IMG/VR virus record: IMGVR_UViG_3300045988_174813
Strand: one strand, 5' to 3'
DNA from: a virus
DNA length: 64,000 bases
Below are positions 1,834-63,837 of the stretch, piece by piece; within the stretch, counting starts at the first letter, position 1; each line of letters starts with the position of its first letter. The notes below the pieces were generated by a model. The model was not told where the DNA came from and made no database searches. It was given only the letters and a program-made list of their open reading frames with translations. The position numbers and the translations under genes are program-made.

Positions 1834-2016
1834 TTAGATTTCCCCCTCAATAGAATAATTTTCGTATTTATAATGTAAATCAATCTGGTATTCTTTTTCA
1901 CACTGCGGGCAATAATAGATACAACATTCTGTATGATAATCATCACCATATAAATCATCATACGTATCATCAAGAGCAAGAACCGCACCACAATTCGGGC
2001 ATCTAATCTCTTCCAT
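1834..2016 (-). CDS. small zinc-ribbon protein, 60 aa
   Basis: CPNC...CPQC pairs; last gene of a three-gene unit; start abuts the stop of the upstream gene (TAAATG). Confidence 0.65.
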   Translation of the reverse strand: MEEIRCPNCGAVLALDDTYDDLYGDDYHTECCIYYCPQCEKEYQIDLHYKYENYSIEGEI

Positions 2017-2178
2017 TTATTCTTCATCCTCCAAACAAGAATCATTATTTTCACCAGTAGGAAAATAGAAACTTCCTTTCCAGAGAGGACAATTATTAAT
2101 ACATTCCCCTTTAAGGCAATCATTTACGTTGCATCTCTCTATAAAGAAAATAATTTCCTCATTACTTAGATTTTTCAT
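2017..2178 (-). CDS. hypothetical Cys-rich protein, 53 aa (below the track cutoff)
   Basis: Hand translation MKNLSNEEIIFFIERCNVNDCLKGECINNCPLWKG...; exactly fills the gap between neighbours 2016 and 2179. Confidence 0.5.
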   Translation of the reverse strand: MKNLSNEEIIFFIERCNVNDCLKGECINNCPLWKGSFYFPTGENNDSCLEDEE

Positions 2179-2298
2179 TTACTCTTCCTCCTCATACTCA
2201 CACGGTGGAATATCTCCCGCGCACTTTGCTTCAAACTTACAAGTTGGATAACTTTCGTCCTCTTCGCACCAGCAATATGGACAATCCTTGCAACTCAT
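2179..2298 (-). CDS. hypothetical Cys-rich acidic peptide, 39 aa
   Basis: AGGAGG lies 7 nt before the internal ATG (MSCKDCPYCWCEED...). The track ORF 2179-2367 starts inside the promoter. Confidence 0.5.
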   Translation of the reverse strand: MSCKDCPYCWCEEDESYPTCKFEAKCAGDIPPCEYEEEE

Positions 2299-2438
2299 AC
2301 ACTTACCTCCTTTAGATGATACAATTATATCGCGCCCGCGCCATAAAGTCAAGAAAAACATTTCCATAACCTAACCTATCTTAGGTTAGAAATGCACCAA
2401 AAACTTTCCCTCGCTAAAGTATTAGCAAGGGAAAATTT

Positions 2439-3296
2439 TCAAATATCGGCGCGTCCTACGATGCGGAACGGGAAAGCAATAATTCCGTAGGAAAATTTTC
2501 CTTTCGTGCGCTTGTGGATAAGGGAAAAAATTTCGGTTTCTATCTCGGCATCATTCAATGCCGTGTGCGCTTCTTCAAAATCAGTTTCCCCAGTGATAAA
2601 CCGGAAAGACGTTTCCGCGCTTGTCTTGTAGTATTTCCCACTTTCGGTAATCCAACCGTTAGCTTTGCACGCTTCGCGGTAATCGTCGCTATCAAGAATA
2701 TGCTCACAAGCCAAACCCCAGAGGTCAAACAGAGGATACGACCGACCACGGAAACGGAACACTTCCGGCTCATATTCTTTCTTGGAGGTATAGCGCGTCT
2801 TGCTTGCAATGTTGTCGCAGATGCGGTTCTGGAGGGCTTCCCAGTTGTGGAAGTCTGCGCTATACAGTTTGGAAATATAAAGCTCGGTAAACGGGATTGC
2901 TTTCTTGAAGTCAAAGTTGGCGTTATAAGCTCCGACGCCTACCACGTCGGCGAGGTCTGCTTCAAGTTTTGCGGACGCTTCGCGCCACGTTGCAAGCTCA
3001 ATCGTTCCCGCTTCCAGAGCTTCAAGGTAAATCGGACGCTTAGACGCATAGTAAGCAGTATTGAAAATCGCAGGAACGGAGAAAATCTCGGTAATGAGAT
3101 AGTTACGGCGGCGATAAACGTTACCCTTGGCGTCGCAAATCGTCCAGCCCAAATCATAAATAAGCGGCTTTGCGATAGCTACGGATTTTTTCGCTTCCGC
3201 GGACAGCTCCGACGCATAGGGAAGCGTTGCGGTTTCGCAATCGAGGACGCAATAGTATTTGCGGCGGCGGTCAAGTTTCTTCTCGGCAATAGACAT
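2439..3296 (-). CDS. DEDDh 3'-5' exonuclease (DnaQ-like), 285 aa
   Basis: Exo I VLDCET, Exo II YNANFDF, Exo III HTALNDAEIE. SD AAGGAG before the ATG at 3296; the track start at 3380 is a TTG inside the -35 box. Confidence 0.8.
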   Translation of the reverse strand: MSIAEKKLDRRRKYYCVLDCETATLPYASELSAEAKKSVAIAKPLIYDLGWTICDAKGNVYRRRNYLITEIFSVPAIFNTAYYASKRPIYLEALEAGTIELATWREASAKLEADLADVVGVGAYNANFDFKKAIPFTELYISKLYSADFHNWEALQNRICDNIASKTRYTSKKEYEPEVFRFRGRSYPLFDLWGLACEHILDSDDYREACKANGWITESGKYYKTSAETSFRFITGETDFEEAHTALNDAEIETEIFSLIHKRTKGKFSYGIIAFPFRIVGRADI

Positions 3297-3441
3297 AATA
3301 TATACTCCTTTTCTGTCGGGGCGTAACTTCTTTTCCCTCCTGACATTATATATATTACCACACCCTATACAGGAAGTCAAGAAAAATGTGTCCGGCTTCT
3401 AACCTATCTTAGGTTAGAAAAATTCCAAAAAAAGCAGGGAA

Positions 3442-3813
3442 TTACTCCCCTGCTTTTTCTTCCTCTGCCTTTTCCGCCTTGGCTTTTTCCTTTTCGGCTT
3501 TCTTCCGTTCCCGCTCGGCTTCTTTGCGCTTCCGTTCGGCTTCCTTGGCTTCGGCTTTCTCCGCCTTGTCTGCGAGCTTGGCGCGATACTCGTTAGCGAG
3601 CGCGTAACCGTCCGTGCCGTCCTCTTCGTCGGCTTTCTTCGGGATAATCACCGACAGCTTCACCCACCTATCCTCCCCAGCTTCGACAGTCGGGAACATA
3701 AGCGTTCCGGAAGCGGTCTGCATGACCTCTTCGCCGTCCTCCGTGAGAACTTCCACCAGACGCGCAAGCATGCGCGCACGCAGAGCATCATTCACATTTA
3801 CTTTCTTTTCCAT
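3442..3813 (-). CDS. hypothetical protein with K/E-rich C-terminal tail, 123 aa
   Basis: Intact ORF, AGGAGG SD, own promoter and palindrome; tail is KAEKAEAKEAERKRKEAERERKKAEKEKAKAEKAEEEK. Confidence 0.7.
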   Translation of the reverse strand: MEKKVNVNDALRARMLARLVEVLTEDGEEVMQTASGTLMFPTVEAGEDRWVKLSVIIPKKADEEDGTDGYALANEYRAKLADKAEKAEAKEAERKRKEAERERKKAEKEKAKAEKAEEEKAGE

Positions 3814-3928
3814 TTGGGATACCTCCTTTATCTTTGTGAGTATATGATACTATATATTGAGGGAAAAGTCAAGAAAAACTTTCGGTAGTTCTAACCTATG
3901 TTAGGTTAGATATAGATGGCTCGCGCCA

Positions 3929-4147
3929 TCAATGAATAGTGAGTTCTACATCGAGTTTTTCGACAAAATCAGAGTTCTCAAAAGAAGCGAAACTACCATC
4001 CGCAATATTTACTGTATTGCACAAAATATTTTTTGACATGCAAAATTTCGTCCGCATATAGAGTTCGCCTTCCCAAGAAAAAACTTCTCCAACTTTGACG
4101 AGTTCAAATACCATATTGCTCTTTCTTCTCGTATCATTGACCTGCAT
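3929..4147 (-). CDS. paralog family 1 member, 72 aa
   Basis: MQVNDTRR..GEVFSWEGELYMR..LCNTVNIADG..VEKLDVELTIH; close paralog of 5125-5343; own promoter, SD and palindrome. Confidence 0.75.
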   Translation of the reverse strand: MQVNDTRRKSNMVFELVKVGEVFSWEGELYMRTKFCMSKNILCNTVNIADGSFASFENSDFVEKLDVELTIH

Positions 4148-4176
4148 TATACGTTCCTCCTTTATTTTGTAATCTT

Positions 4177-4205
4177 ATTATATCAAATCTCTTTAGTTGT
4201 GTCAA
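4177..4205 (-). promoter_or_regulatory. representative early promoter (TTGACA-17-TATAAT) 6 nt downstream of palindrome 4212-4232
   Basis: Minus strand: TTGACA 4200-4205, TATAAT 4177-4182, AGGAGG about 4157-4162, ATG 4147. The same layout precedes nearly every early gene. Confidence 0.75.
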
Positions 4206-4243
4206 TTGTAGTCTAACCTATATTAGGTTAGAATAGTTGGGTG

Positions 4244-4462
4244 TCAGAATGACACCCGTGCGGGAATGGGAATAACTTCCGTATCGACATTGTAAGAGTG
4301 AAAAACGCCGTCGGAAAGAGAAACTGCATTGAGGTAGCAATCTTCTTTTTCGTCGAAGACAACTTCGGTTTTCATAAGCAGACGCTTATCCGCATTGTTT
4401 GCAAGAAGAAAGCATTCACCTTTAGACAATTCCCCAAAAGAATTACTAGTTTCAATAATCAT
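4244..4462 (-). CDS. paralog family 1 member (divergent), 72 aa
   Basis: ..GECFLLAN..LLMKT..NAVSLSDG.. matches the family pattern; own promoter, SD and palindrome. Confidence 0.7.
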   Translation of the reverse strand: MIIETSNSFGELSKGECFLLANNADKRLLMKTEVVFDEKEDCYLNAVSLSDGVFHSYNVDTEVIPIPARVSF

Positions 4463-4569
4463 ATTATTTCCTCCTTTTCTTTATGGTCGTATTATACTAT
4501 ATTATACGCGCATTGTCAACTAATCTCTAACCTATATTAGGTTAGAAGCCTCCAAAAAATTGTCTACCC

Positions 4570-5007
4570 TCAACCGAGGGCAGACAAAATTTCCATAATC
4601 TGCGACGGGTCAAAACTGTATTCTCCCCAGTTTTCGCGGTTCTTCTCTTCATCATCGAAAAGAATATCTTCCGCGCCGAGCTTGAAAGTTTCTTTCGGTG
4701 TGCCATACTCTACGACGTGGATAGCGTCCCACTTGACAGAGTGGAGATGCTTGTCAAGCCATTTCTTTTTGGCTTCGCGCACGGCTTCAAGATAGGCTTT
4801 CGAGCTTGTCTTGCTTCCCCACGAGATAACGCCGATAGTGTAGCCTGCGCGGTGGAGCTTGTTGAGCTTGCGCGCGAGCGTGCGCATATCACCGAGCGGT
4901 CGCGCCTGGGCATAGGGTCTTGGATTTTCTGCGCGAAGCATAGAAAGCCAATTTTCCACGGCGTAAAGGTCTGAAATTGTGCCGTCCATATCGAACCAAA
5001 TCGTCAT
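4570..5007 (-). CDS. HAD-superfamily phosphatase (5'(3')-deoxyribonucleotidase-like), 145 aa
   Basis: N-terminal FDMDGT (DxDxT) motif; size and later D-rich motif (FDDEE) fit small HAD nucleotidases. Confidence 0.7.
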   Translation of the reverse strand: MTIWFDMDGTISDLYAVENWLSMLRAENPRPYAQARPLGDMRTLARKLNKLHRAGYTIGVISWGSKTSSKAYLEAVREAKKKWLDKHLHSVKWDAIHVVEYGTPKETFKLGAEDILFDDEEKNRENWGEYSFDPSQIMEILSALG

Positions 5008-5124
5008 TTCGTTGTGTCCTCCTTTATCTTTGTGAGTATATGATACTACATAATGAGTAAAAAGTCAAGAAAAAATTGTGTGGTTTCTAACCTATATTAG
5101 GTTAGATTATGATGGCTTATGCCA

Positions 5125-5343
5125 TCAATGAATAATGAGTTCTGTATCGAGTTTTTCAACAAGCTCGGAATTTGCAAAGTAAACCAACATGCCATCCGCA
5201 ATATCGACTGTATTACACAAAGTATCACCAACTTTGCAAGGTCGTATCCTCATCCAAAGTTTACCCTCCCAACAAAAAACTTCTCCTTTTTTGATTGCTT
5301 CAAAAAAAACGTGTTCTTTCATTCTCGTATCTTTGACTTGCAT
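5125..5343 (-). CDS. paralog family 1 member, 72 aa
   Basis: MQVKDTRM..GEVFCWEGKLWMR..LCNTVDIADG..VEKLDTELIIH. Confidence 0.75.
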   Translation of the reverse strand: MQVKDTRMKEHVFFEAIKKGEVFCWEGKLWMRIRPCKVGDTLCNTVDIADGMLVYFANSELVEKLDTELIIH

Positions 5344-5466
5344 TATAGTTTCCTCCTTTATTTTGTAATTGTATTATACTCCACTATGCACTCCTTGTCA
5401 ACTATCCTCTAACCTATTTTAGGTTAGAAACCCTCCAAAAAAGAGAGGGGAGAAAACTCCCCTCAC

Positions 5467-5832
5467 TTACTCCGCGTCCACGTCCGCGGGATGGGCAACG
5501 TAACACTTCTGCGCGCCCTTGCCCTTGACCTTGACATCCTCCACGTCAAGCTCACCGAGCGCGACAAGCTGACGGAGCAGGGCGGACGCCTTAGGTGTGG
5601 ACAGCTCAAGCTCCACAGCGACCTCGGAGGCGAGACGCTTCTTGTTGTCGTCCATCAGATTGCGGATGGCGTCGAGGATGGGCGCGTTTTCGGCGAGCTT
5701 CTTGGAGTTGACGCGAGCCGAAGCCTTTTCGCGCTCTTTGGTAAGCTGGTCAAGCATAGCCTGCGCCTTTTCGTTCATTTCGTCGGAGAGGTTCGCGCTA
5801 ATCACGTTCGCAAAAAATTCCTTATTGGTCAT
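5467..5832 (-). CDS. hypothetical protein with C-terminal winged-helix-like domain, 121 aa
   Basis: GC-rich ORF. ..LASEVAVELELSTPKASALLRQLVALGELD.. resembles MarR-type wHTH. Separate terminator at 5445-5464 plus T-run. Confidence 0.65.
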   Translation of the reverse strand: MTNKEFFANVISANLSDEMNEKAQAMLDQLTKEREKASARVNSKKLAENAPILDAIRNLMDDNKKRLASEVAVELELSTPKASALLRQLVALGELDVEDVKVKGKGAQKCYVAHPADVDAE

Positions 5833-5991
5833 GATGTATTCCTTTCTGGTTTTTCGGTCTTGTCCTTGACCTTGAATTTTAGGGGATTTTGTATCCCCCT
5901 TACGAGTATTATATTACCACATACTCTAAAAAATTGCAAGCAAAATTTTTTGGGTTCTAACCTATTTTAGGTTAGAATGGAAGTGGAGGAA

Positions 5992-6267
5992 TTATTCCTC
6001 CACTTCATCATTTGCGAGCCGAACCTCATAGGGCCCATACACGTCATCATCTTCTGCTTTTTCGTGTGCCCAATCTTCAAATTGCAGGCGCGCCTCTTCG
6101 CGGTCTGCGTCGGTAAACTCAAAGATTTCATCAATGTAATAGTTTTCTTCAAGAAAAACATTGAAGTTATCTTTTGTTTTCCAATCGTCCACAAGACCAT
6201 TGAAGTATTCTTCGTGCGCGCGGTCGGACATCATGTCATTGTCGAAAGAACTATACCATACTGTCAT
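5992..6267 (-). CDS. highly acidic small protein (paralog family 2), 91 aa
   Basis: AGGAGG before the ATG at 6267 (MTVWYSSF...); about one third D/E; shares the EEYF..W..ENY..EIF pattern with 7900-8151. Confidence 0.7.
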   Translation of the reverse strand: MTVWYSSFDNDMMSDRAHEEYFNGLVDDWKTKDNFNVFLEENYYIDEIFEFTDADREEARLQFEDWAHEKAEDDDVYGPYEVRLANDEVEE

Positions 6268-6366
6268 TTGGGTATCCTCCTTTGTCTTTGTGAGTATACT
6301 ATACCACACTTTGCGCGGAGTGTCAATTCTCTTCTAACCTATATTAGGTTAGATGCCCAATTGGAA

Positions 6367-6765
6367 TTATTTTCCAATCGGGCAGACAGTAAGTCCGCGT
6401 TCTTTGAGATACTGAATTGCAATAGTGGCATCGTAATAATCAAAAATTTCTTTGAGACTTGCTTCATATGGGATATAATTGTATTCCACTACAAGGGTAT
6501 GCGGTTTTTTATCAAGAGAACTCCACATAAAAGGTTTACTTTCCACTTCCAGCCCATAAAATTCTTTTTTGAAAAGTTTCTTCCATGTCCATGTGAAGAC
6601 GCCTGCGTTTGCTGGAAGAGAATCAATAGCTTCTTTGAGATTAGTGAATGTCCAGGTTTTTGTGCTGATGTCGGCTTCATCTGCAAGAACAAAGCCATGT
6701 GTGCGGGACTGCATTTCTTCTCCATCAAAGAGAACGCGCACCTTGAGACGATAAGACTTAATCAT
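6367..6765 (-). CDS. hypothetical protein, 132 aa
   Basis: SD AAAGGGGA before the ATG at 6765 (MIKSYRLKV...). The longer track ORF starts inside the promoter. Confidence 0.65.
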   Translation of the reverse strand: MIKSYRLKVRVLFDGEEMQSRTHGFVLADEADISTKTWTFTNLKEAIDSLPANAGVFTWTWKKLFKKEFYGLEVESKPFMWSSLDKKPHTLVVEYNYIPYEASLKEIFDYYDATIAIQYLKERGLTVCPIGK

Positions 6766-6871
6766 TGGTTTATCCCCTTTCTTTTGATGATACAAATATA
6801 CCATATTTGCACTATAAAGTCAATCCCTATCTAACCTAATATAGGTTAGAAAAATAAGGGGCATAAGTCCC

Positions 6872-7189
6872 TTACTTCATAATTGCATAATTTTTTGCAT
6901 ACCAGAATTTTTCTGGAATTTCCATAACCGTGATAAGCACGATACCCTCTTCAACCTTGCCATAGATAAATACATAATTTTTATACACTTTGAAAAACTG
7001 ATTGTTCCCGCGGAATTTTTCAGCCGTATATCTCAAGTAGCTTTCAAACGGCGTTCCCTCGTAGCGTTCAAACTCTACTCCGCGCGCGTAGGCTTGGCGC
7101 GCGATTTTAGATATAGAAATATTGTAGGTGAGATTTTTGCGCTCGCGCCATCTTTTGAAAGCGTGGTCTGAAATGATAATGGTTTCCAT
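6872..7189 (-). CDS. hypothetical protein, 105 aa (weak resemblance to DUF4258-type small toxins)
   Basis: The N-terminal ISDHAFKRWRER motif is reminiscent of the H-A-x-x-R-x-x-E-R signature. Resemblance only, not verified. Confidence 0.55.
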   Translation of the reverse strand: METIIISDHAFKRWRERKNLTYNISISKIARQAYARGVEFERYEGTPFESYLRYTAEKFRGNNQFFKVYKNYVFIYGKVEEGIVLITVMEIPEKFWYAKNYAIMK

Positions 7190-7298
7190 AATTTTGGGAT
7201 ACCTCCTTTTCTTTATGGTCTTATTATACCATATGGAAAGAAAAAGTCAACACCCCTCTAACCTATGTTAGGTTAGAAATGCGCGCGGTCTCCGCGCG

Positions 7299-7514
7299 TT
7301 AGTGGATGACAAGGTCAGCATCGACGAACCGAACGACTTCATCTCCCATGAAGCAAGTAATTGTACCATCCTCAAGACAAATTGCGTTATATATATGACC
7401 ATTAGAGACGGTCTCTCTGAACCTCATAAAAATGCTATTGTTATATTCAAAAATTCCGCCTACGTCTACGTCGTCAAAAAAATGATTCTCATTTTCTTTT
7501 CTAATAATATTCAT
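7299..7514 (-). CDS. paralog family 1 member, 71 aa
   Basis: AGGAGG before the ATG at 7514 (MNIIRKEN..GGIFEYNNSIFMR..NAICLEDG..DADLVIH). Confidence 0.7.
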   Translation of the reverse strand: MNIIRKENENHFFDDVDVGGIFEYNNSIFMRFRETVSNGHIYNAICLEDGTITCFMGDEVVRFVDADLVIH

Positions 7515-7621
7515 AACTTGTTCCTCCTTTATTTTGTAATTATAATATACCATAAAAAATTCCAACTGTCAATACCACTCTAACCTAATATAGGTTAGAA
7601 TTTATGCTGGCTCGCGCCAGC

Positions 7622-7798
7622 TTAGTAGATAGAATATTCAGCTTCCAGGCGCCAGCTCTCACTCTCGCGCAGTTCCATTTCTACGAGCGTTGGCATCTGA
7701 CCAATGAGTGCCATGAGTTGCTTTCCGATGTCTATCGTAGTGATGTAGGGCAAACGTTGCGCGGGCATATCTTTGAACCATGCGGTAAGTGTATACAT
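7622..7798 (-). CDS. hypothetical protein, 58 aa (below the track cutoff)
   Basis: GGGAGG SD 7 nt before ATG; MYTLTAWFKDMPAQRLPYITTIDIGKQLMAL...; replaces plus-strand track ORF 7604-7873, which has no signals. Confidence 0.55.
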   Translation of the reverse strand: MYTLTAWFKDMPAQRLPYITTIDIGKQLMALIGQMPTLVEMELRESESWRLEAEYSIY

Positions 7799-7899
7799 TT
7801 GGAATACCTCCCTTTACTTTGTACTGTAAGTATACTATATCTATACGAAAAAGTCAACCCACTTCTAACCTAAGATAGGTTAGAAAAAAAAGAGGAAGA

Positions 7900-8151
7900 T
7901 TACTCTTCCTCTTCCATGGGTTCATAGTCCATGTCCTCAATAGCCTCTTCCCGCACAGCGTCATAAAACTCTTCGTAAACGTTCTGCCGTTCCATCTCGC
8001 ACATAGAGAAAATCTCGTGAGCGTTATAGTTTTCATCAATCCAGCGCTCAAAGAAATACTCATCCAGTTGCGCCTCCATCTCTTCCTCTACCAGCTCGTC
8101 AAAACGCTCCTCGTCAATAACCTCACCAGTGATAGCATGCTTGTACATCAT
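7900..8151 (-). CDS. highly acidic small protein (paralog family 2), 83 aa
   Basis: 31 of 83 residues are D/E by hand count; DEYFFERWIDENYNAHEIF matches 5992-6267. Confidence 0.7.
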   Translation of the reverse strand: MMYKHAITGEVIDEERFDELVEEEMEAQLDEYFFERWIDENYNAHEIFSMCEMERQNVYEEFYDAVREEAIEDMDYEPMEEEE

Positions 8152-8315
8152 AGTAAAATACCTCTTTTCAAATATTTGAGACGTTCGGTTTGTTTCCTCT
8201 ATCTCTTTACATTATGAATTATACTATATATCGTCCCGAATGTCAACTCATTTCTAACCTATAATAGGTTAGAATATATCCTGCGCAGAAACTAAAAGTG
8301 CCCCTATTGGGGCAC

Positions 8316-8519
8316 TTATTTGAGCACCTTACACTCACGAATCTCAAAAGGCTTGACCCCATTATTATCCGACAATGATTTCCACCACCGTTCAGGGGTG
8401 AGCCATTTCTGCTGGTTCTCTGTGGCAAAACAATCATATAGCGTGTTGATTGCGTCTTTCTTGTTGTTGGCAACTGCGAAAAACGGATGTCCACTTGTTG
8501 TTCTAAAAACTGCTACCAT
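8316..8519 (-). CDS. hypothetical protein, 67 aa
   Basis: SD AAGGAGAAG before the ATG at 8519 (MVAVFRTTSGHPFF...). Confidence 0.6.
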   Translation of the reverse strand: MVAVFRTTSGHPFFAVANNKKDAINTLYDCFATENQQKWLTPERWWKSLSDNNGVKPFEIRECKVLK

Positions 8520-8641
8520 ATCTTTCTTCTCCTTTTGGTTATTTCTTTTATCTTTGTGATTATAATATACCATACTTTTAGAAAGAAGTCAACTAACTTC
8601 TAACCTATATTAGGTTAGAAAAGGATTGATGGCTCGCGCCA

Positions 8642-8863
8642 TCAAATCCGAACCGTGATGTCAGCCCTCACCGGCATGACAATGGTACCGGAGTCATACA
8701 CCGTCATCTCACAGGTGTCAAAATCAAATGCATTGCGTCTCCAGCCGTCACTGGTGTAGGTGTCTGCCAGTTTGAGGCACGGCTTGCCGCAACAAAGAAA
8801 AGTGTCGCCAACTTTCAGTTCACTAAATTCGACGGTTTTACGGTACTGATAAAAGATGTTCAT
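8642..8863 (-). CDS. paralog family 1 member (divergent), 73 aa
   Basis: MNIFYQYRK..VGDTFLCCGKPCLKL..; same length class and G-[DE]-x-F core; stop sits in a GATGGC-N4-GCCATC hairpin as in 3929 and 5125. Confidence 0.6.
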   Translation of the reverse strand: MNIFYQYRKTVEFSELKVGDTFLCCGKPCLKLADTYTSDGWRRNAFDFDTCEMTVYDSGTIVMPVRADITVRI

Positions 8864-8971
8864 TGGTATATCCCCTTTCAAGTTTGTATACACATTATAA
8901 CGCATATGCGCCCGTTTGTCAACCGGTTTCTAACCTATTTTAGGTTAGAAGTCCCCCTTGCGGGGGAACGC

Positions 8972-9157
8972 TTACCGCATATCCTGTCCCATATAGATAA
9001 ATTCCACACGCTTACCGACAAGATTGTGCTCCTGTCTGAACTTTTTCTTAGCGGTAGTCATAGAATACCCATAATAGACAGTATGCGCGCCGTCATAGCA
9101 AAAAGTAAGAGACGCGTTGCGCGGATTGGAACTGATGAACACGGTAGACATAGACAT
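8972..9157 (-). CDS. hypothetical protein, 61 aa
   Basis: AGGAGG SD, own promoter and palindrome. Confidence 0.6.
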   Translation of the reverse strand: MSMSTVFISSNPRNASLTFCYDGAHTVYYGYSMTTAKKKFRQEHNLVGKRVEFIYMGQDMR

Positions 9158-9302
9158 GGTAGAAACCTCCTTGTTTTTATACTTGAATTATACTATATGA
9201 TTATGGGATAGTCAAGAAAAAAATTCCCATATCTAACCTATATTAGGTTAGAAAAAATTGCAAAAAAAATTCCATACCATTATGGGATACAAAAAATTGC
9301 AA

Positions 9303-9358
9303 GAAAAAATTCCATTGCGCGGGCACCATAAAATTACTACAAAGTATGGTGTCCGCGC
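9303..9358 (-). terminator. hairpin terminator after CDS 9373-9540
   Basis: 14-bp stem GCGCGGGCACCATA / TATGGTGTCCGCGC (one mismatch) followed on the minus strand by a T-run. Confidence 0.55.
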
Positions 9359-9372
9359 CGTGTATGTATGTC

Positions 9373-9540
9373 TCAATATCTTACTTCTGTATAAAGATGT
9401 GCTACGCCAGAAATCAGAGAATACACACCTACTAACTCTTGAATTATAAACCGCGCCATAGAAATATTGCCCATATCAATCGCGCCAACACTACCAAAAA
9501 TAAGTGCAATCCCAACAATGATTTTTATCCATTTACTCAT
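9373..9540 (-). CDS. small membrane protein, 55 aa, two predicted TM segments
   Basis: SD AAGGAGAG before the ATG at 9540; MSKWIKIIVGIALIFGSVGAI...LVGVYSLISGVAHLY. Confidence 0.6.
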   Translation of the reverse strand: MSKWIKIIVGIALIFGSVGAIDMGNISMARFIIQELVGVYSLISGVAHLYTEVRY

Positions 9541-9644
9541 TAGAATACTCTCCTTTCGTTTTCTACTTATAGTATATATTATGGAAACCAAATTGTCAAT
9601 ACAGAATTATGTGAACCGCGCGAAACTCTAACCTATATTAGGTT

Positions 9645-9693
9645 AGAAAATATAGTGAAAAGAAACTTCACTACGGTAAAGTAGTGAAGTTTC
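9645..9693 (-). terminator. canonical rho-independent terminator after CDS 9700-9864, immediately followed by palindrome 9627-9647
   Basis: 13-bp stem GAAACTTCACTAC/GTAGTGAAGTTTC (9662-9693), then TTTTCACTATATTTTC on the minus strand. Confidence 0.75.
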
Positions 9694-55437: not shown

Positions 55438-56403
55438 TTACACTAAATCGCGCATTTCAGCAACAACAACCTCATAAAGGTCTTTTTGTGCCGGAGTAAT
55501 ATTGGAGAGTTTCATTTTTTGACCAAAAACCTTTTCAACAATTTCCATTATTCTTTCGGCATTGCGCTCGTCTTTAGAAACAGCCTTACCCCATAGCTCA
55601 CGGGCTTCAGCTTCAACCTCTTCAAAGGAGCGCTCTTCCTGAATGACTGGAGTGCGATTATCTACGACAACGGCACCATCATCCTTTTCAGAACGCTCAA
55701 TTGCACGGCCAATCGCATCTACAAGTTCCTGATAACCAAAAGGAATTACGGGGTCAAGATATTTCCAACGGGAACCAGCCATTACAGTGGGCGTGCGACG
55801 AGTATAGAGAAAACGTTCAGATGTTCCATCTTCCTTGAAACGAACGTCAATATATCCAATAATATCGACAAGCTGATTGACAATAGAATAGCAACGCTTG
55901 TCAAGGTCGGGGCTAAAGAACTCAATTTCACTATCATCAGACTGCTTTTCAACTCTACGAGAAGAATGCGCAATAAGGATAATACCAAGACCCATCATAG
56001 AAATCTTACGAAGAGTTTCTTCAAACTCCTGCTTGACCATCGCATAGCCGCGACCCCAAGGGATATCAGAAATAGACTGTACTCCATTCTGGGCGCAAAT
56101 ATACTTTTCACAAAGCCCATATGCAATGCCAACAGTATCAAAAGTTACTGTATGGAATTTAGCTTGAACTTCTGGCTTTTCTAACTGCTTGACAGCTAAC
56201 TTCAATTCAGACCATTTAGTAATGGGAAGGGCATAAATGCCCGAAAGAGCATTAGTACCAATTTCAAAACTAAAAATCAAATTGTTGGGCAGAGAGGCCG
56301 CGAAAGAAGTCTTTCCGGCTTTCGGCTGAGAATAAATCAGAAGATACTTTGAACGAAGGTCTCGGCTAATTGTTGTAGGCTGAAGGTTCAGTAAATCAAC
56401 CAT
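55438..56403 (-). CDS. phage AAA ATPase (Sak4/AAA_24-like recombination ATPase), 321 aa
   Basis: Walker A YSQPKAGKTS, Walker B-like GIILIAHS; typical neighbour of phage SSB. Confidence 0.6.
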   Translation of the reverse strand: MVDLLNLQPTTISRDLRSKYLLIYSQPKAGKTSFAASLPNNLIFSFEIGTNALSGIYALPITKWSELKLAVKQLEKPEVQAKFHTVTFDTVGIAYGLCEKYICAQNGVQSISDIPWGRGYAMVKQEFEETLRKISMMGLGIILIAHSSRRVEKQSDDSEIEFFSPDLDKRCYSIVNQLVDIIGYIDVRFKEDGTSERFLYTRRTPTVMAGSRWKYLDPVIPFGYQELVDAIGRAIERSEKDDGAVVVDNRTPVIQEERSFEEVEAEARELWGKAVSKDERNAERIMEIVEKVFGQKMKLSNITPAQKDLYEVVVAEMRDLV

Positions 56404-56422: not shown

Positions 56423-57319
56423 TCAAAATCCTAGGTCTGCACCCTTGGTGGGACGAGCATTTGCAATATTCTTCTGCGCGGCCTTGCGCTTCATCTCTTC
56501 AAGACGCACCTTACGCTCATTGAGAGCCTTAGCAATTTCATTAGTATCATAGGCCTGGTCGCCCTCAAGGCTTCCAGCAGAACCACTAGTAATGATAAGG
56601 TCGCTAGTATTGCGAGTATGAGGAGTGCGAATGGGCTCACCAAAACCTACTTCTTCTTCAGTATAGAAAGTGGTCTTAGAGAAACGAAGCTTACCGCAAA
56701 TCTTTACTGTATCGCCCTTCTGCCAATTGGTCTGAATATGGTCGATAGCATTCTTATTAGTAACCTTATATCCAACAATATCCGCACGGCCACCATACTG
56801 GACAAGAACACCAGTTACAACAAGCGCGCCAGTTGGTTCGTTTTCACGGTCAACTTCATCACGAATATTTGCAATGCAGATAGTATTCTGGAAACGGGTC
56901 TGAGGCTCACAATCAGCCTTAGAAATCTTCTGGAAGAAAGAAGCATTGACCTTCGGGAAAGAAACCGTCTGCTCCTGACGTCCAATATAAGCATTCTCCT
57001 GAATAGTACCAGAAGTAATGCGGATGCGGTCAGCAGTATCAATATCGCTCGCCGCGATAGAAACAAAATTAGAGCGCAAATCATTCACAGACTTATAAGC
57101 CGGATTTTCAGCGCCACTATTAGTATATTTAGTAACGAAGAAACTGACTGGGACATCATTTTCAACCATTCCACCGTCAAGCACTTCATTTACTTTTATA
57201 ATAATTTCACCAGAAAGGTAAGGAACCTTACTGCCGTTCTTGGTAAATTCACCTTCACGAACATTGATTTCACTAAGGATACCTTCGATAAATACTTTAT
57301 TTTCACCCTAATTCAGCAT
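56423..57319 (-). CDS. putative phage single-stranded DNA-binding protein (gp2.5/DUF2815-like), 298 aa with TAG at codon 4
   Basis: AGGAG SD plus ATG CTG AAT TAG...; in frame with track ORF 56423-57184; C-terminal ..GADLGF tail; adjacent to the AAA_24-like ATPase. The family call is inferred. Confidence 0.5.
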
Positions 57320-57930: not shown

Positions 57931-60285
57931 TTAGAGTGCCAGTATATCTAGCACTCTATCTCCATTCTTGACTTTCATTCCTTTCACTCCAACCGCGCTG
58001 CGTCCAGTTTCAGCAATGCTATCACTATCTACTTTCAATGCAGTAGTGCTTGTTGTAAAAGTCAATTCAGTCTTTCCAGTAATTCCAATAAATCCGCACA
58101 TCGTATCTCCATCACCAAGTTTCTGGAGTTTATAACCTTTTACATCTCTATTTGATGTAGGGCAATCTCCAATAGGCGTCTTACTCGTCATTCCATAAGA
58201 AGATACAGATACAATACTCTTTACATCTGAATATATGGGGCGCGCGCAACATACGCTATCTCCATCATTCAATTTCATCCCGCGCACACCCATTGCAACT
58301 TTGCCAATGGGATTTATATCTTTTGTATTTATTATAGCAAATTGGCTGGATTTTGTCAAAATTCCAAGCCGTTCATCATTCATAAAGGAAATAGACACAA
58401 TTTCGTCTCCATCCTTTAGCTTGATGCCTTGTGCGCCCAGAGATTTTTTAGCTTTATATTCTTCGAGAAGAGATTTTTTGAGCATACCTTCTTTGGTTAT
58501 AAAGACAATATACTTGTAGGATTTTGCTTTTACAAAACTCATTATATTCGTAATTTGTTCTCCATCTTGGAGTTTCACCATATCATAGATACTTTGTGCG
58601 CCCTTGATATTCAATTCACTCATTGGATAAGAGTAATATCTTCCCTTATTAGAGAACAGCATCAGCGTTCCAATATTAGTGTCGGTAATCGTATCAATTA
58701 TACATTCACCACTATTGAGTTTTATTTTAGAACCAACTCCTCCTCGACGTTGAACAATAAGGGTTGAAGTTTCTTCTGCAAGAATATTTCCATAATTCGT
58801 TAGCGACACGATAAGTTGCTTTTCTTCAATAATCTCATCCTCAGAAGTAGAGTTGAGATTTAGAACTTGTGTTCTGCGCGCATCGCCAAATTTATTTGCT
58901 ACTTCATGTAGGCCCTTTTCAATTTCTTTCTTGAGTAATGTTTCATCATTGAGGATGGATGTAATGCGCTTCTGCTCAAGTTCAAGATTACCTTTTTCTT
59001 TCAAAAGTTTATCAATTTCCAAATGTGCAAGGCGCGCAAGCTTAATTTCAAGAATTGCTTTTGCCTGCACCTCATCAATGGAAAGAAGTTTCTGAAGCGC
59101 AAGATTGGCACTGCGAGTATCTGAGGATGATTTGATAGTGTGGACAACCTCATCAATCATTGAGATGGCTTTGAAAAGCCCATCAATAATATGAAGGCGC
59201 TCATTGATTTTGTTTAGATCATAATTGAAGCCACGGATGTAAACTTGTTTTTCGTGGGAAAGATAAGCAAGAAGAGCTTCACGCCAAGTAAAGACTTTAG
59301 GATAACGACCATTATCGAGCATTGTGAGATTGACTGGATAGTAATACTCTAATGAAGTATTCTTATAAAGAAACTTCATAATTTTTGCAGGATTTGCGCC
59401 TTTGCTTAGATAAATCTTGATACAAGGCTTTTCACCAGTCAAATCATTGAAACGTTCAATACCTGGATTATTATCTCCGTTGATAATCTCTTCAAGCTGT
59501 CCGCAGATAGTTTCAGTATACACCATATAAGGTATTTCTTTGACAATAAGGCATCTATCCTTACTATCAAACTCAACTACACTACGAAGCTTACAAGCTT
59601 TACCAGTTCCATTTTTATGGCTTTCTTTTACTTCATCGGCATTTAGAAGTATCGCACCTGTCGCAAAGTCAGGAATACAATAAATATCATCGAAAGATGC
59701 ATTTTCATTCCACAAAAGAGTAATAAGTGCATCATTGACTTCTTTCAAATTATATTGAGGTATAGAACTACTCGCGCCGACTCCTATGCCATACGAACCA
59801 TTTACAATATTATAGTATCCTTTGCTTGGAAGTACACTTGGATACTGCTCAGTATTATCATAGTTGTCTCGCCATTCTTCAATGGTATCTTTGTTTATAT
59901 CGGCAAAAAGATATTCACTAAGTTCCGAAAGACGAGAACCTGTATATCGTGGTGCTGCCCAACTACCAGAAGCAAGAAGCGTACCATATGAGCCTTCTAC
60001 ATCAATAAGTGGGTAGCGCATTGAAAAAGGCTGACCTGCGCGCATAATAATTCCCTCTGCGCTACTATCGCCATGGATATATAAACGGAAACTATTGCCA
60101 ATTGCCTTTACAGTCTTATGAAAAGGCTTAGAATGGATAAATTTATCTGTATAAAGGCAATAGAAGATTTGTCTTGCAGATGGTTTACAGAGGTCGCGCA
60201 CATCAACCAAAGCACGTGATTGAAGTACTGCACCTGCATATTGGAGAAAACTTTCTTTTATAATTGGTGTAAGTTCGACTTCCAT
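57931..60285 (-). CDS. gyrA: type IIA topoisomerase subunit A (GyrA/ParC-like), 784 aa, no TAG
   Basis: N-terminal ..YAGAVLQSRALVDVRDLCKPSARQIFY.. and AAPRYT catalytic-Tyr region; beta-pinwheel-like C-terminus. Confidence 0.85.
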   Translation of the reverse strand: MEVELTPIIKESFLQYAGAVLQSRALVDVRDLCKPSARQIFYCLYTDKFIHSKPFHKTVKAIGNSFRLYIHGDSSAEGIIMRAGQPFSMRYPLIDVEGSYGTLLASGSWAAPRYTGSRLSELSEYLFADINKDTIEEWRDNYDNTEQYPSVLPSKGYYNIVNGSYGIGVGASSSIPQYNLKEVNDALITLLWNENASFDDIYCIPDFATGAILLNADEVKESHKNGTGKACKLRSVVEFDSKDRCLIVKEIPYMVYTETICGQLEEIINGDNNPGIERFNDLTGEKPCIKIYLSKGANPAKIMKFLYKNTSLEYYYPVNLTMLDNGRYPKVFTWREALLAYLSHEKQVYIRGFNYDLNKINERLHIIDGLFKAISMIDEVVHTIKSSSDTRSANLALQKLLSIDEVQAKAILEIKLARLAHLEIDKLLKEKGNLELEQKRITSILNDETLLKKEIEKGLHEVANKFGDARRTQVLNLNSTSEDEIIEEKQLIVSLTNYGNILAEETSTLIVQRRGGVGSKIKLNSGECIIDTITDTNIGTLMLFSNKGRYYSYPMSELNIKGAQSIYDMVKLQDGEQITNIMSFVKAKSYKYIVFITKEGMLKKSLLEEYKAKKSLGAQGIKLKDGDEIVSISFMNDERLGILTKSSQFAIINTKDINPIGKVAMGVRGMKLNDGDSVCCARPIYSDVKSIVSVSSYGMTSKTPIGDCPTSNRDVKGYKLQKLGDGDTMCGFIGITGKTELTFTTSTTALKVDSDSIAETGRSAVGVKGMKVKNGDRVLDILAL

Positions 60286-60316
60286 TTCTTTTCTCCTTTC
60301 TTTACATTATATAAAT

Positions 60317-60345
60317 ATTATATCATAAAAAGAGAGGAAAATCAA
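60317..60345 (-). promoter_or_regulatory. extended -10 promoter upstream of gyrA (TTGATT-17-TGaTATAAT)
   Basis: Minus strand: TTGATT 60340-60345, TATAAT 60317-60322; overlaps the stop of CDS 60342-60848. Confidence 0.55.
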
Positions 60346-60848
60346 ATTTCCTCTCCAAAATCACAGTCAAAGAATAATGGCGAAAATAACATTTTCAAAC
60401 CAAAATATAGTTCTTCAACTGAATTATATTTATAATAAAAACCTTTAGGCAATTGACTGGCAATAGTAAGAAGTTCTTCATCTTTCCAGGCATTAGATGG
60501 CGCGACTTCAAGCCATTTTGGGCTAAGAAGTGCGCTAACATCTATTTTTGATACATTCAAAAGATAAAGCTCATTTTCATCACCCAAAATAAAGAAAAAA
60601 TTTTTACCAATAGGTATCTTTTCTTTATCTACTAATTTACGATAATAACAAAGAAGCTGGCATAAAATTTGTGCGCGTGTTTTTTCATTGGTGAAATTTC
60701 TCTTATATTTTAGTTCAAGAATACCAACAGGTTTCCCATCTATTCTTACAATGCCATCCGAACGATATTCATTCGTAATAGTAATATGACTGGAAGTTTT
60801 TATATCAATAGCTTGCTTGATAGCAAATTCAACGTCTTTTTCAACCAT
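60342..60848 (-). CDS. PD-(D/E)XK-like nuclease-fold protein inserted between topoisomerase subunit genes, 168 aa
   Basis: ..RIDGKPVGILELKYK.. fits a D-(x)n-E-x-K motif. The family call is inferred from the motif only. Confidence 0.5.
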   Translation of the reverse strand: MVEKDVEFAIKQAIDIKTSSHITITNEYRSDGIVRIDGKPVGILELKYKRNFTNEKTRAQILCQLLCYYRKLVDKEKIPIGKNFFFILGDENELYLLNVSKIDVSALLSPKWLEVAPSNAWKDEELLTIASQLPKGFYYKYNSVEELYFGLKMLFSPLFFDCDFGEEI

Positions 60849-60852
60849 TTTA

Positions 60853-62718
60853 TTATTCCCTTATTGTAGAAAAATCAATATTCTCAAAAATAAAATCATG
60901 CTTAGGTTCACTATCTTTACTCATAAGAGTCGTAAGCAAAGGCAAACTATCATCATCAGGTCTAAGTATATCAAGCTTTTGATATGCTGGGTCAAACATT
61001 GATTTTCGCGCTTGTTCTGCACTCAAGGAACCGAGTCCCTTATTTCTTTGCACTTCCCCTTTCACTAGACCTTTTGCTTTTGCTCGCGCGAGTTCTGCAT
61101 CACTATAATAATAGGTTTCAGTCTTACCATTAGTTGTAATATGGAGGGGCGAACGAAGCCAGCAAAGTCTACCCTCCTCGATGAACTGTGGAGCAAACTT
61201 ATAAATTGCACACATAATAAGAAGTCCAATAGCAAAACCATCACTATCAGTATCACTACATATTCCAATACGTCCATAACGAAGCTTTTTACTATCATAC
61301 TTTCCTGGCACAATATTCATCGCACTAAGTAAGAGTTTGATTTCTTCGTTTTGATAGATTTTTTCGTCATCGTTAGAAAAAGTATTTATTGGTTTTCCGC
61401 GTAAGGCTAAAATGCCCCATTTAGTGGCATCACGCGCCTGAGCAATACTGGATGCCGCGGAAAGACCTTCCACGAGAAGAAGAGTGGCATCCTGGCCGAG
61501 AAATTCTGCATCTTTGAGCTTATCACTGGCGAAGACCTTCCGCTTTTGGTTTTTTTCAATATCTTTGGACGCTTCGAGAACTTGTTTACGTGCGCGTTCT
61601 GCGGCAACCTCAGCTTTCAACTCTTTCCCAAGAAGCTCTACTATTTTCCCAAACTCGTCTTTGTGCTCAATTTCAAAACGTTCAAGCATTTTAGTGGTCA
61701 CACGCTGGCATATACCGCGAAGTGAAGGAGAAACACATTTGGTTTTTGTTTGGTTGGAATATTGAGGATTAGGCAACTTACAAGAAACTGCATAATAAAG
61801 TCCACGTCTGTAAACGTCAGAATTATCGACATCTTTCAATCTCTTTTTGAAGAAATTTGTAAGTGCAGTTTTGATTCCAGTGATATGAGTTCCGCCATCA
61901 ATATTTTCAAGACCATTAGCAAAAGCATGGGCTTCTTCTTTTCGCGAGCTAGTCCAAGCCATTACAATTTCGACTTCGGTATCTTCTTCTTTTATTTCAA
62001 TATGAAGTGGAGTCCTATGAATAAGCTTTCCACCTTCATCTTTGAGTAAGTCAACTAAACCATCTTTAGACAAGTATTTTACTTTTTCGTTAGTAATATG
62101 ATTTACTAATACAAAGGTCAAACCCTTGCAAAGATATGACCAATCTCGGCACATCTTCTTTACTTCTTCAAAGTCAATGTTGATAGGTTCAATTTTATAG
62201 ACTTCTTGAGAAGGAATAAATTCCACATAAGTGCCTGATTTTGGGTCTTTAGATGTAGTTGCGCGCACGGTCAATGAAGTTTTTATCCCATCTTTCAACT
62301 CAAGAGTAGCACATTGCCCGTCACGAAAACTTTGTGCCTTGAAATAAGACGAAGAAAGGGCTGTGCCTTTTGCCCCTATGCCATTGAGTCCTGCCACATT
62401 TTGATAAACTTTTTCATTGAATTTACCGCCTGAATGGGGGAGCATAAAAATGGCTTCCATAGCATCAGTTCCATCATCACGTGTGCCAAAGGGAACCCCT
62501 CGCGCTCTATCTGCTATAGTAATTCGATTTCCTTCATATAAATCTACATAGATTTCATTACCATAACCCATAGTATATTCATCAATGGAGTTCGTGATAA
62601 TTTCTCGAATAGCTTGAAGTACTCCTTGATTATCGGCACTACCGAGATACATTGCAATTTTAGTTCTTATTGCAGTTCTAAAATCAAGCGTTTCAATATC
62701 ATTCGCATTATAATTCAT
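60853..62718 (-). CDS. gyrB: type IIA topoisomerase subunit B (GyrB/ParE-like), 621 aa, no TAG
   Basis: GHKL ATPase motifs (EIITNSIDE, GLNGIGAKG), Toprim (LLVEGLSAA, CSDTDSDG). Confidence 0.85.
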   Translation of the reverse strand: MNYNANDIETLDFRTAIRTKIAMYLGSADNQGVLQAIREIITNSIDEYTMGYGNEIYVDLYEGNRITIADRARGVPFGTRDDGTDAMEAIFMLPHSGGKFNEKVYQNVAGLNGIGAKGTALSSSYFKAQSFRDGQCATLELKDGIKTSLTVRATTSKDPKSGTYVEFIPSQEVYKIEPINIDFEEVKKMCRDWSYLCKGLTFVLVNHITNEKVKYLSKDGLVDLLKDEGGKLIHRTPLHIEIKEEDTEVEIVMAWTSSRKEEAHAFANGLENIDGGTHITGIKTALTNFFKKRLKDVDNSDVYRRGLYYAVSCKLPNPQYSNQTKTKCVSPSLRGICQRVTTKMLERFEIEHKDEFGKIVELLGKELKAEVAAERARKQVLEASKDIEKNQKRKVFASDKLKDAEFLGQDATLLLVEGLSAASSIAQARDATKWGILALRGKPINTFSNDDEKIYQNEEIKLLLSAMNIVPGKYDSKKLRYGRIGICSDTDSDGFAIGLLIMCAIYKFAPQFIEEGRLCWLRSPLHITTNGKTETYYYSDAELARAKAKGLVKGEVQRNKGLGSLSAEQARKSMFDPAYQKLDILRPDDDSLPLLTTLMSKDSEPKHDFIFENIDFSTIRE

Positions 62719-62751
62719 CCACTCACCATCCTTTCATATCTTATTTCCATT

Positions 62752-63837
62752 TTACCACTTCATCAATCCATCATCAAATTTTGGCTTTTTTACTTTTGGC
62801 TTTCTTGTTTTTCTTGGCGCGCCCATCCACAAAAGCCCATCCATTGCGCGTGTCGCGGCGACATAAGCAATACACTTCTCTTCGACGCCAGATGCGCGCA
62901 GGCCAGTAGCAATACAATATTTCCATTCGAGTCCTTTCGATGCGTGGATAGTAAGTACCTTCACTGTATTTGCTTTCATTTTTTGAGTAAGTTCTTCTTT
63001 TGTAAGATCAGATTGTTTGAACGTATCAAATGGAATATCTGCCCCGCGCAGAATATTACAAATCATTTCCACTTGTTCATTAGTTCGCGCAAGAATAGCC
63101 CAATCACGCCATTCACCAGCAGACTTTAGGAAAACAATAATCTGTTCCGGCGAATACTCCAAAAACTTTACTCGTCCGCCCTTGCCCCTCATTGCTATTG
63201 AAGTATCAGGCGGAGAAGCTTCGGAAAGAAGCGTTCGCGCGAAATCCAATATTTCACTATGATTTCGATAGTTTTCATTCAGCTCAAATACAGTTGCACC
63301 CATTTTTTGTTTATATTGCTCCAACAATTCGGGGCGCGCGCCAGCCCAACGATAGATTGACTGACGAGTATCATACATAATAAAATATTCTCGCGCACGG
63401 AGTATATCAAACATAAACTCTAATTGTGTCTTGCTGCTGTCCTGTGTTTCATCACAAAGACAGATATCAATTACCGGAGGATTTGGCGCGATATATTGTT
63501 TCGCAAGCTCAAACAGCTTATCAAACTCTTCATCTTCTATTGCTTTTTTTGCGGCCTTGACGCCACGCATGGCAAGAAGTTTTGCGCAATAAGAGTGAAT
63601 TGTGCCGATAAATACTTGCTCATTATTTTTCAAACCAAGTCGCTGACGCATTTCTTCTGCGGCCATATTTGTGAAAGTAAAGGCAACAGTGATTTTACTC
63701 TCATGCACTGAGCGTCGAACTTTTTCACAAAGCACCTGAGTTTTTCCTACTGCACAAGAAGCTTCAATAAATTGGATGGGCTCGCGCGCAGAAAGAATTT
63801 CCTCCTACTTTTCACTTAGTTCAATATATTCACTCAT
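62752..63837 (-). CDS. UvrD/PcrA-like SF1 helicase (short), 361 aa with TAG at codon 11
   Basis: GGAGG SD plus ATG at 63837. MSEYIELSEK[TAG]EEILSA..ASCAVGKTQ (Q-motif and P-loop), in frame with track ORF 62752-63735 (..TFTNMAAEEM.., ..VLTIHASKGLEW..). Confidence 0.7.

Follow-up and report, generated by a model that had tools for sequence, protein, structure and literature searches.

Distribution of in-frame TAG, most likely a glutamine codon, follows gene class in a probable siphovirus-type gut phage

We examined how in-frame TAG codons are distributed among the genes of the IMG/VR virus record IMGVR_UViG_3300045988_174813, using a single stretch of 64,000 nucleotides (hereafter, the window). 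TAG in this DNA is most likely a sense codon for glutamine, judging from the sequence comparisons below, and its use depends on the class of the gene: it is absent from a block of small, putatively early genes, sporadic among replication genes and dense among virion genes. The 27 genes of the early class contain no TAG in 2,555 codons, the 19 genes of the replication class contain 20 in 7,577 codons, and the 19 genes of the late class contain 137 in 8,740 codons. When expressed as a share of the Gln-type codons (TAG, CAA and CAG together), these counts amount to 0%, 7.1% and 30%, respectively. The late share differs from that of the replication class (P = 4e-15) and from that of the early class (P = 8e-7). 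The replication block is itself heterogeneous (permutation P = 0.002), as 12 of its genes, together holding 152 Gln-type codons, are free of TAG. Across genes, a high share of CAG predicts a low share of TAG (Spearman -0.55, P = 7e-4); G+C at third codon positions (GC3) alone is no predictor (Spearman -0.15, not significant). An earlier reading of the same sequence (hereafter, the original prediction) had arrived at this zero, sporadic and dense tally by hand, and the TAG frequencies that we computed gene by gene and class by class bear it out.

Our gene table was built independently of that reading. TAG was allowed as a sense codon, start codons were anchored on Shine-Dalgarno sites, and independent gene calls and exon mapping were also used. 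Read in this way, the window has three blocks: small open reading frames (ORFs) on the minus strand (469-12438), virion genes on the plus strand (13024-40079) and replication genes on the minus strand (40113-63985). The window is nearly identical to part of ENA ERZ28573108 scaffold_150 (122,567 bp) and makes up 52% of this 122.6-kb genome, with window base 1 lying at about record position 109,669. Altogether we read 103 kb (84%) of the genome, comprising the window with flanks of 9.5 kb on the left and 8.7 kb on the right, together with record positions 76,690-97,463. Stretches other than the window carry L-numbers; L122 (the last-mentioned segment) and L005 are from the source genome, and L119, L120, L121 and others are from relatives. 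The ends of scaffold_150 map to window positions ~12,850-13,020, in the gap that separates the divergent early and late blocks, and could represent either the physical end of the genome or merely the assembler's cut of a circular contig.

Contigs related to the window are common in public gut metagenome assemblies, and a megablast search with 20 kb of the late block found no match among GenBank phages. The large terminase subunit, TerL, is 42% identical to that of Geobacillus virus E3, 37% to those of Enterococcus phages and 32.5% to that of phAss-1. We rejected a crAss-like identity, as the nearest matches in the TerL search were Geobacillus E3, Enterococcus and SPbeta-type phages. The virus is probably a siphovirus-type gut phage that decodes TAG as glutamine, and its host is likely to belong to the gut Bacillota.

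Several observations indicate that TAG is read through as sense. Once TAG was treated in this way, the summed length of ORFs of at least 150 codons rose from 40 kb to 74 kb. The curated genes contain 157 in-frame TAG codons and not one in-frame TAA or TGA, while out of frame TAA and TGA are each commoner than TAG. The products of the TerL, portal, RecJ, DnaB, UvrD-like and RuvC-like genes match their family profiles over most of their length, across the TAG positions. TAG never serves as a stop: none of the 64 window genes ends in TAG (P = 6e-7 if 20% of stops had been TAG), and neither does any of 32 flanking genes or of 31 genes in L122. As to the amino acid inserted, close relatives have TAG at 60 and glutamine at 19 of the corresponding sites, other residues being rare, and the codons exchanged with TAG are CAA and CAG. 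In distant relatives, glutamine is the most frequent residue at the TAG positions of the window. Insertion of glutamine at TAG has been shown by proteomics for crAss-like phages only (Peters et al. 2022, PMC9523058).

These data also bear on whether TAG in replication genes marks pseudogenes or stems from errors of assembly or sequencing. We looked for signs of decay and found that homology was full-length, that the frames were interrupted by TAG alone (157 against 0 TAA or TGA), and that TAGs were kept in orthologues, the same positions recurring in independent assemblies from different samples. An origin by decay or artefact is thereby refuted, and we give it next to no weight.

The early block (469-12438, minus strand) consists of 27 small ORFs preceded by strong AAAGGAGG Shine-Dalgarno sites, and their stops are 19 TAA and 8 TGA. 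The original prediction that none has an in-frame TAG or uses it as a stop thus stands. When ORFs were begun at strong Shine-Dalgarno sites and simply run to the first TAA or TGA, they still contained no TAG; the zero count is therefore not circular. A greedy longest-ORF model placed five TAGs in early ORFs, but we rejected these, as Shine-Dalgarno starts and independent gene calls showed the ORFs concerned to be over-extended or in the wrong frame. The block is further distinguished by a GC3 of 0.50, compared with 0.28-0.32 elsewhere, and by a high density of sigma-70-type sites matching at least 11 of 12 positions: 17 were found within its 13 kb, and the coding strand carries 14 of these. 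Its proteins are poor in glutamine, which accounts for 1.6% of codons compared with 3.7-5.2% elsewhere. The early cassettes at 3800-10350 (minus strand) carry recurring leaders, such as cacaaagaTaaaggaggtatcccaaATG, and five promoters that match TTGACA-17-TATAAT perfectly. Three ORFs of 72 amino acids lie at 3929-4147, 4244-4462 and 5125-5343, and the leaders of the first and third are near-identical.

The late block (13024-40079, plus strand), in which searches against PHROGs and Pfam recognised TerL, portal, other virion proteins and a Sipho_tail protein, has TAG in 15 of its 19 genes. It contains TerL (15963-17759, 6 TAGs), the portal gene (17772-19292, 4 TAGs; PHROG 2739, E = 4e-62), the tape measure gene (27263-34321), and, at 34341-39769, the genes for Dit (Sipho_tail, 7 TAGs) and a minor tail protein of 1,447 amino acids (21 TAGs), which were assigned by profile searches. 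The tape measure assignment comes from its size and its location upstream of the Sipho_tail gene. It has 65 TAGs in 2,352 codons, or 2.76 per 100 codons, which is lower than the roughly 4 per 100 originally estimated. At a read-through of 0.95 per TAG codon, only 4% of tape measure chains would be full-length, and at 0.99, 52%; late suppression must therefore be near complete. Four late genes are free of TAG: that for the major capsid protein (21267-22316; glutamine encoded by 3 CAA and 9 CAG), identified by tblastn matches to annotated major capsid proteins of Bacillus phages Thrax1/3 and to phAss-1; its upstream neighbour (20700-21245), possibly a decoration gene from its position; hyp143 (22875-23306, on the strand of the late block); and that for the major tail protein (25500-26303; 36% identity to annotated major tail proteins, PHROG 2729). 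Thus, the original prediction that virion genes are unreadable without suppression applies to TerL, portal, tape measure, Dit, the tail fibre and 10 others, but not to the major capsid and major tail proteins and two neighbouring proteins.

The first late gene (13024-14316, 6 TAGs) is weakly sigma-factor-like in the C-terminal part only (PHROG 5767, E = 1.6e-11). This is a single PHROG hit, and sequence searches of Pfam, NCBIfam and PDB lent the label no support. Should late genes be transcribed through its product, late transcription would lie downstream of suppression. No sigma-70-type site matching at least 11 of 12 positions was found at 13000-32999.

The replication block, all on the minus strand, mixes TAG-free and TAG-bearing genes, and profile searches against PHROGs and Pfam confirmed the gene names originally proposed. 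DnaE (43008-46979; start TTG at 46979; Pfam DNA_pol3_alpha) has no TAG in 1,323 codons that include 47 Gln codons, an outcome with P = 5e-8 if TAG were used at the rate of late genes and 0.03 if it were used at that of the replication block. GyrA (784 amino acids), hyp168 and GyrB (621 amino acids), at 57931-62718 and assigned with Pfam, are likewise TAG-free, and so are dUTPase, hyp64 and hyp88. The class II-type ribonucleotide reductase (RNR) gene (47075-50456, Pfam) is split by an intron of about 1.15 kb; exon 1 (49668-50456) and exon 2 (47075-48520), which we mapped against an uninterrupted orthologue of 744 amino acids in L119, have no TAG. A TAG seemingly at codon 2 of exon 2 was rejected because it falls in the intron. 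Among the genes at 52192-56403, assigned by profile searches, primase, YorH and the AAA_24 ATPase have none, and the DnaB-like helicase has one, at codon 459 of 548. The counts thus agree with the zero originally reported for DnaE, both RNR exons, primase (DnaG), GyrA, GyrB, dUTPase and the ATPase, and the standard code suffices to read these core replisome and nucleotide enzymes as well as the early genes.

TAG does occur in the RuvC-like Holliday junction resolvase gene (40113-40856, PHROG 159/827; 5 TAGs), the RecJ-like exonuclease gene (50471-52192, Pfam DHH and RecJ_OB; 4 TAGs), the YorF/SSB-like gene (56423-57319, PF27337 YorF; codon 4) and the UvrD-like helicase gene (62752-63837, Pfam; codon 11). 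These numbers, and the one in DnaB, match those first given. The TAGs at codons 4 and 11 are real, since each ATG is preceded by a Shine-Dalgarno site at 5-6 nt (6 nt for YorF) and both codons are kept in four genomes. Two counts were revised: the GIY-YIG ORF within the RNR intron (48612-49439) has 5 TAGs rather than 2, and the ORF reported at 41911-42894 with 2 TAGs has 3 if, as we prefer, it starts at 43011 (hyp366, 41911-43011), since this start gives an ATGA overlap with the DnaE stop and the resulting 366-amino-acid form is conserved in relatives. Rfam at gathering thresholds reported no family in the window, including the RNR intron. The original prediction also proposed a comparison of TAG use with promoter class. 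The two go together in the early block, where consensus sigma-70-type promoters accompany the absence of TAG, but not cleanly in the replication block, where DnaE (0 TAGs), hyp366 (3), hyp64 (0), dUTPase (0) and RuvC (5) seem to share one operon. Four sigma-70-type sites matching at least 11 of 12 positions lie in 20 kb of the replication block, one of them before DnaE (47040-47012) and two before hyp88-YorF-AAA_24. Since TAG-bearing and TAG-free genes seem to lie in the same operons, any gating would act at translation, not transcription.

We then considered codon usage more broadly by asking, within the codon families concerned, what share of codons is cognate to a tRNA that the phage itself encodes. 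Early genes reach 0.31 and TAG-free late genes 0.20, compared with 0.43 in TAG-bearing late genes and 0.45 in TAG-bearing replication genes. Early genes and TAG-free late genes also prefer CAG (64-71% of Gln codons). Thus, early genes and the presumably abundant virion proteins avoid every codon served by the phage tRNAs. By contrast, TAG-free replication genes have a share of 0.41, so that they are specifically TAG-free rather than generally host-optimised. DnaE, gyrase and the like, phage-type in their codons yet without TAG, are the cleanest evidence for a constraint on TAG itself, and this constraint fits a need for these enzymes to be translated before, or independently of, the suppressor.

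The pattern of TAG use, gene by gene, is kept in up to five related lineages. The capsid gene and its neighbour are TAG-free in five lineages, one of which has more TAGs overall, and DnaE, RNR, primase and dUTPase are TAG-free in the three of three relatives sampled. RuvC has 4-6 TAGs in three relatives, and RecJ keeps 2-4 and hyp366 2-3. The TAGs at codon 4 of YorF and codon 11 of the UvrD-like gene are kept in the four genomes while nearby codons vary. At the same time, about one-quarter to one-third of TAG sites swap with CAA or CAG between close relatives, and many sites therefore behave like synonymous sites.

Mobile elements add to the diversity among strains. The RNR intron of the window (48521-49667) is absent in L119 and L121. 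In L120, a near-identical strain, RecJ and DnaE carry additional insertions (4397-5504 and 11116-12406), each with a TAG-rich ORF, and L121 has a short insertion of 243 nt in RecJ (6418-6659) without an ORF. All seven endonuclease-type ORFs examined, whether in introns or free-standing, are TAG-rich, with 3-7 TAGs each; five of them have a GIY-YIG match, and the two of L120 were assigned by weak similarity or position. L121 also has a DnaE allele (9635-13561) that is only 53% identical to that of the window between flanking genes that are 96-99% identical; it looks like a sharp recombination mosaic, and this allele too is TAG-free.

Such exchanges raise the question of whether the TAG-free modules (the early block, DnaE, gyrase and RNR) could be recent imports from standard-code phages or hosts, in which TAG has not yet accumulated. 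The DnaE allele of L121, the GC3 of the early block and the coming and going of introns and endonuclease genes between strains would be compatible with such an origin. However, the TAG-free replication genes share their AT-rich, phage-tRNA-matched codon usage with the TAG-bearing ones and so look long-resident. Moreover, TAG-bearing genes lie between them in shared operons, neither of the two divergent DnaE alleles has TAG, and the pattern is stable across lineages. We therefore consider mosaic origin a very unlikely explanation of the pattern.

A tRNA able to read TAG is encoded by the source genome. The window and 18 kb of its flanks yielded no tRNA, but about 34 kb past the right end of the window, L122 has a cluster of 16 tRNA genes that includes an uninterrupted tRNA(CTA) gene (8974-9049), flanked by tRNA-Gly(tcc) and tRNA-Ile(tat). 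Directly upstream of it is a promoter-like TTGACT-17-(TG)TATAAT sequence, near-consensus and host-type. A tRNA(CTA) occupies this slot in every retrieved congener tRNA cluster that spans it. The gene comes in three versions of unrelated sequence in different strains (L122 8974-9049, L105 5430-5504 and L106 5159-5430), preceded across these strains by a conserved promoter-like site, and this suggests that the suppressor is subject to cassette replacement between strains.

In several congeners, the tRNA(CTA) gene is split by a group I intron (L109 8723-8982, also in L110-L112 and L114-L116; L106 5184-5368), and the introns score 52.9 and 58.2 bits with Rfam RF00028, both over the gathering threshold. 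The intron of the 275-nt form lies between U33 and C34, just before the anticodon, and its exons rejoin to the exact sequence of the uninterrupted L105 allele; that of the other intron-bearing allele lies inside the anticodon according to ARAGORN. Our literature search found no report of a group I intron splitting a suppressor tRNA(CTA). A further ARAGORN call of an intron-bearing tRNA(CTA), at L103 1373-1454, was not relied on, its anticodon stem being mismatched. Two tRNA-like genes of L122 (11155-11231 and 15025-15106) have abnormal anticodon loops, read by ARAGORN as a 4-base 'tata' and a 2-base 'cc', and both are kept in several congeners.

We looked elsewhere in the source genome for early genes with TAG at late-gene density and found none: 49 further genes are TAG-free, namely 23 of 23 to the left of the window and 26 of 31 around the tRNA cluster. 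The five TAG-bearing genes of the latter group encode a GIY-YIG endonuclease (7 TAGs), a protein of 566 amino acids (11 TAGs) and three proteins with one TAG each, at codon 9, 13 or 26. The 566-amino-acid protein (L122 16081-17781; orthologue in L102 3327-5114) represents a family of 566-595 amino acids with 10-11 TAGs, encoded beside PhoH in an otherwise TAG-free block. It had no hit in PHROGs, the sole library searched, and may be a displaced late or lysis-related gene.

Taken together, we favour an account in which two filters act on TAG and the remaining genes depend on the suppressor, and we assign it a probability of roughly 0.6. Under the first filter, TAG would be absolutely barred from genes needed in the naive host (the early genes with host-type promoters, and DnaE, primase, GyrA/B, RNR, dUTPase and AAA_24), because without the suppressor it would be a lethal nonsense codon. 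Under the second, the major capsid and major tail proteins and two neighbours, probably the virion proteins made in the largest amounts, would shun all codons that depend on phage tRNAs, TAG included. Elsewhere, TAG would swap freely with CAG and CAA and accumulate in the AT-rich genome; the tolerant genes would be those of probably low-copy late proteins, of recombination and packaging-linked nucleases and of homing endonucleases. During infection, host RNA polymerase would produce the early transcripts and the suppressor tRNA, TAG-free proteins would be made at once, and TAG-bearing proteins would rise as charged tRNA(CUA) outcompetes release factor 1. The yield of a protein with n TAGs would be approximately (read-through)^n, so that more TAGs mean a steeper dependence.

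The original prediction, like the model of Borges et al. (bioRxiv 10.1101/2021.08.26.457843), went further in regarding the recoding as a timer or lock. In the adaptive form of this view, TAG codons are positively selected, and their number and position set when, or whether, a protein is made. N-terminal TAGs would be near all-or-none switches, and TAG-rich homing endonucleases would be held off until late. The first TAG lies at most 30 codons from the start in 15 of 32 TAG-bearing genes, where 9.2-10.1 are expected under the null (P = 0.009-0.036), and in 5 of 11 single-TAG genes, where 1.7-1.9 are expected (P = 0.013). Such an enrichment would limit wasted synthesis, although this was an exploratory test whose cut-off was picked after seeing the data, and errors in start codons would mimic the effect. 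The persistence of the codon-4 and codon-11 TAGs amid varying neighbours, the TAG-richness of all seven endonuclease-type ORFs and the difference at translation between genes in shared operons also speak for a timer. On the other hand, swapping at one-quarter to one-third of the sites is as expected of near-neutral synonymous sites, no lock applies to the major capsid and major tail proteins, and the suppressor has a host-type promoter. A timer or lock thus fits these sequence data, but we consider both it and its elaboration into N-terminal switches and delayed endonucleases possible rather than probable.

More speculative, and in our judgement unlikely, is a scheme of graded, protein-specific thresholds, in which one TAG near the N-terminus would switch a protein on or off and a large number of TAGs would give an ultrasensitive gate that opens late. 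As its input, such a scheme would have an exchangeable, promoter-proximal suppressor cassette that, in some strains, first has to self-splice its group I intron, which would add a delay or condition at the RNA level.

Several points weigh against the two-filter account. The difference between replication and early classes is weak (P = 0.089 per Gln-type codon, 0.004 per codon), because the early proteins are poor in glutamine (42 Gln codons). The 'early' label itself is putative, being based on promoter-like sites, small ORFs and codon usage only. The strong host-type promoter of the suppressor suggests that the tRNA could be made from the start of infection, leaving little time gap, and any delay could therefore be short. 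The tape measure requires near-complete read-through, yet no release-factor or synthetase gene was found among precomputed Pfam hits for the 103 kb or in profile scans. A putative endolysin (SH3_3 and NlpC/P60, 259 amino acids; L005 18570-19349, left of the window), the sole recognisable lysin, has no TAG; no holin was identified in the 84% of the genome examined. Finally, the account is drawn from about 84% of the 122.6-kb genome.

Class-specific use of TAG is a kind of phage recoding that has already been published, and our finding is a rediscovery, a correct one, in a new lineage, since Borges et al. and Babkin et al. reported the same pattern. Borges et al. described the same architecture, with a code-switch model, in eight phage clades (crAss-like, Lak, Garnet, Amethyst, Topaz, Jade, Sapphire and Agate), and also a preferentially recoded group I intron endonuclease within an early gene. 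The present phage has that architecture, with structural genes recoded and nothing in the early genes or the suppressor at odds with the standard code, the exceptions being the four TAG-free late genes. It shares with the phages of Borges et al. its own suppressor tRNA, standard-code early genes, recoded structural genes, variable recoding of replication genes, preferential recoding of an intron endonuclease and loss of TAG as a stop in a low-GC genome. It belongs to another lineage than those phages, its closest TerL matches being in Geobacillus virus E3, Enterococcus EF1-type and SPbeta-type phages. Its recognisable lysin is unrecoded, whereas a bias towards recoding of lysis genes was reported for crAss-like and Agate phages, and release-factor and synthetase genes, present in some of their clades, were not seen in the 103 kb. 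Its major capsid and major tail genes are TAG-free and host-optimised, and its suppressor lies behind a host-type consensus promoter.

A second comparison is with phAss-1 of the proposed Phassvirus (Babkin et al. 2023, PMC10607447; OQ749652), a human-gut phage of siphovirus type with a genome of ~130 kb in which TAG stands for glutamine and is found 'mostly in virion genes and several DNA-processing enzymes'. Both phages have a tRNA-Sup(CTA) inside a large tRNA set, and the phAss-1 capsid homologue is one annotated coding sequence in the standard code, parallel to the TAG-free capsid gene here. However, TerL and capsid are only 32.5% and 33.9% identical, the genome layouts differ, and one suppressor tRNA gene was seen here (in ~84% of the genome) compared with three in phAss-1. 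The three described members of Phassvirus share synteny and >80% nucleotide similarity, and our phage, with no nucleotide-level match to phAss-1, falls outside the genus as so described.

As in the codon partition by tRNA arrays of T4-like phages, discussed by Borges et al., TAG-bearing late and replication genes use phage-tRNA codons and early genes are host-type. Here, by contrast, one tRNA reads a stop codon, so that dependence is absolute rather than kinetic, and the most abundant late proteins would be host-optimised. Kienbeck et al. (2024, PMC10879173) described theta (hepatitis delta virus-like) ribozymes beside suppressor tRNAs in recoded gut phages. Coupling of a ribozyme to a suppressor tRNA gene is common to those systems and the congeners described here, whose ribozyme is a group I intron that interrupts the tRNA; it differs from the theta ribozymes in class and position, and the suppressor of the window genome itself is uninterrupted. 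An Rfam scan reported no theta ribozyme, with the reservation that we did not check whether Rfam 15 includes that family.

Our analysis adds a large siphovirus lineage of Bacillota type to the phages that alter the meaning of TAG during infection. In practical terms, annotation in the standard code breaks up about one-third of the genes of this phage and would miss terminase, portal and tape measure. The refinements to the published picture are the absence of TAG from presumably abundant virion proteins, the specific avoidance of TAG in replication enzymes with phage-type codons, the mixing of TAG-bearing and TAG-free genes within operons, and the structure of the suppressor locus with respect to its promoter and alleles. 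The split is accordingly not a plain one between early and late genes, since the virion proteins presumed most abundant can still be translated with the standard code, and the TAG-free replication enzymes with phage-type codons separate the constraint on TAG from general codon optimisation.

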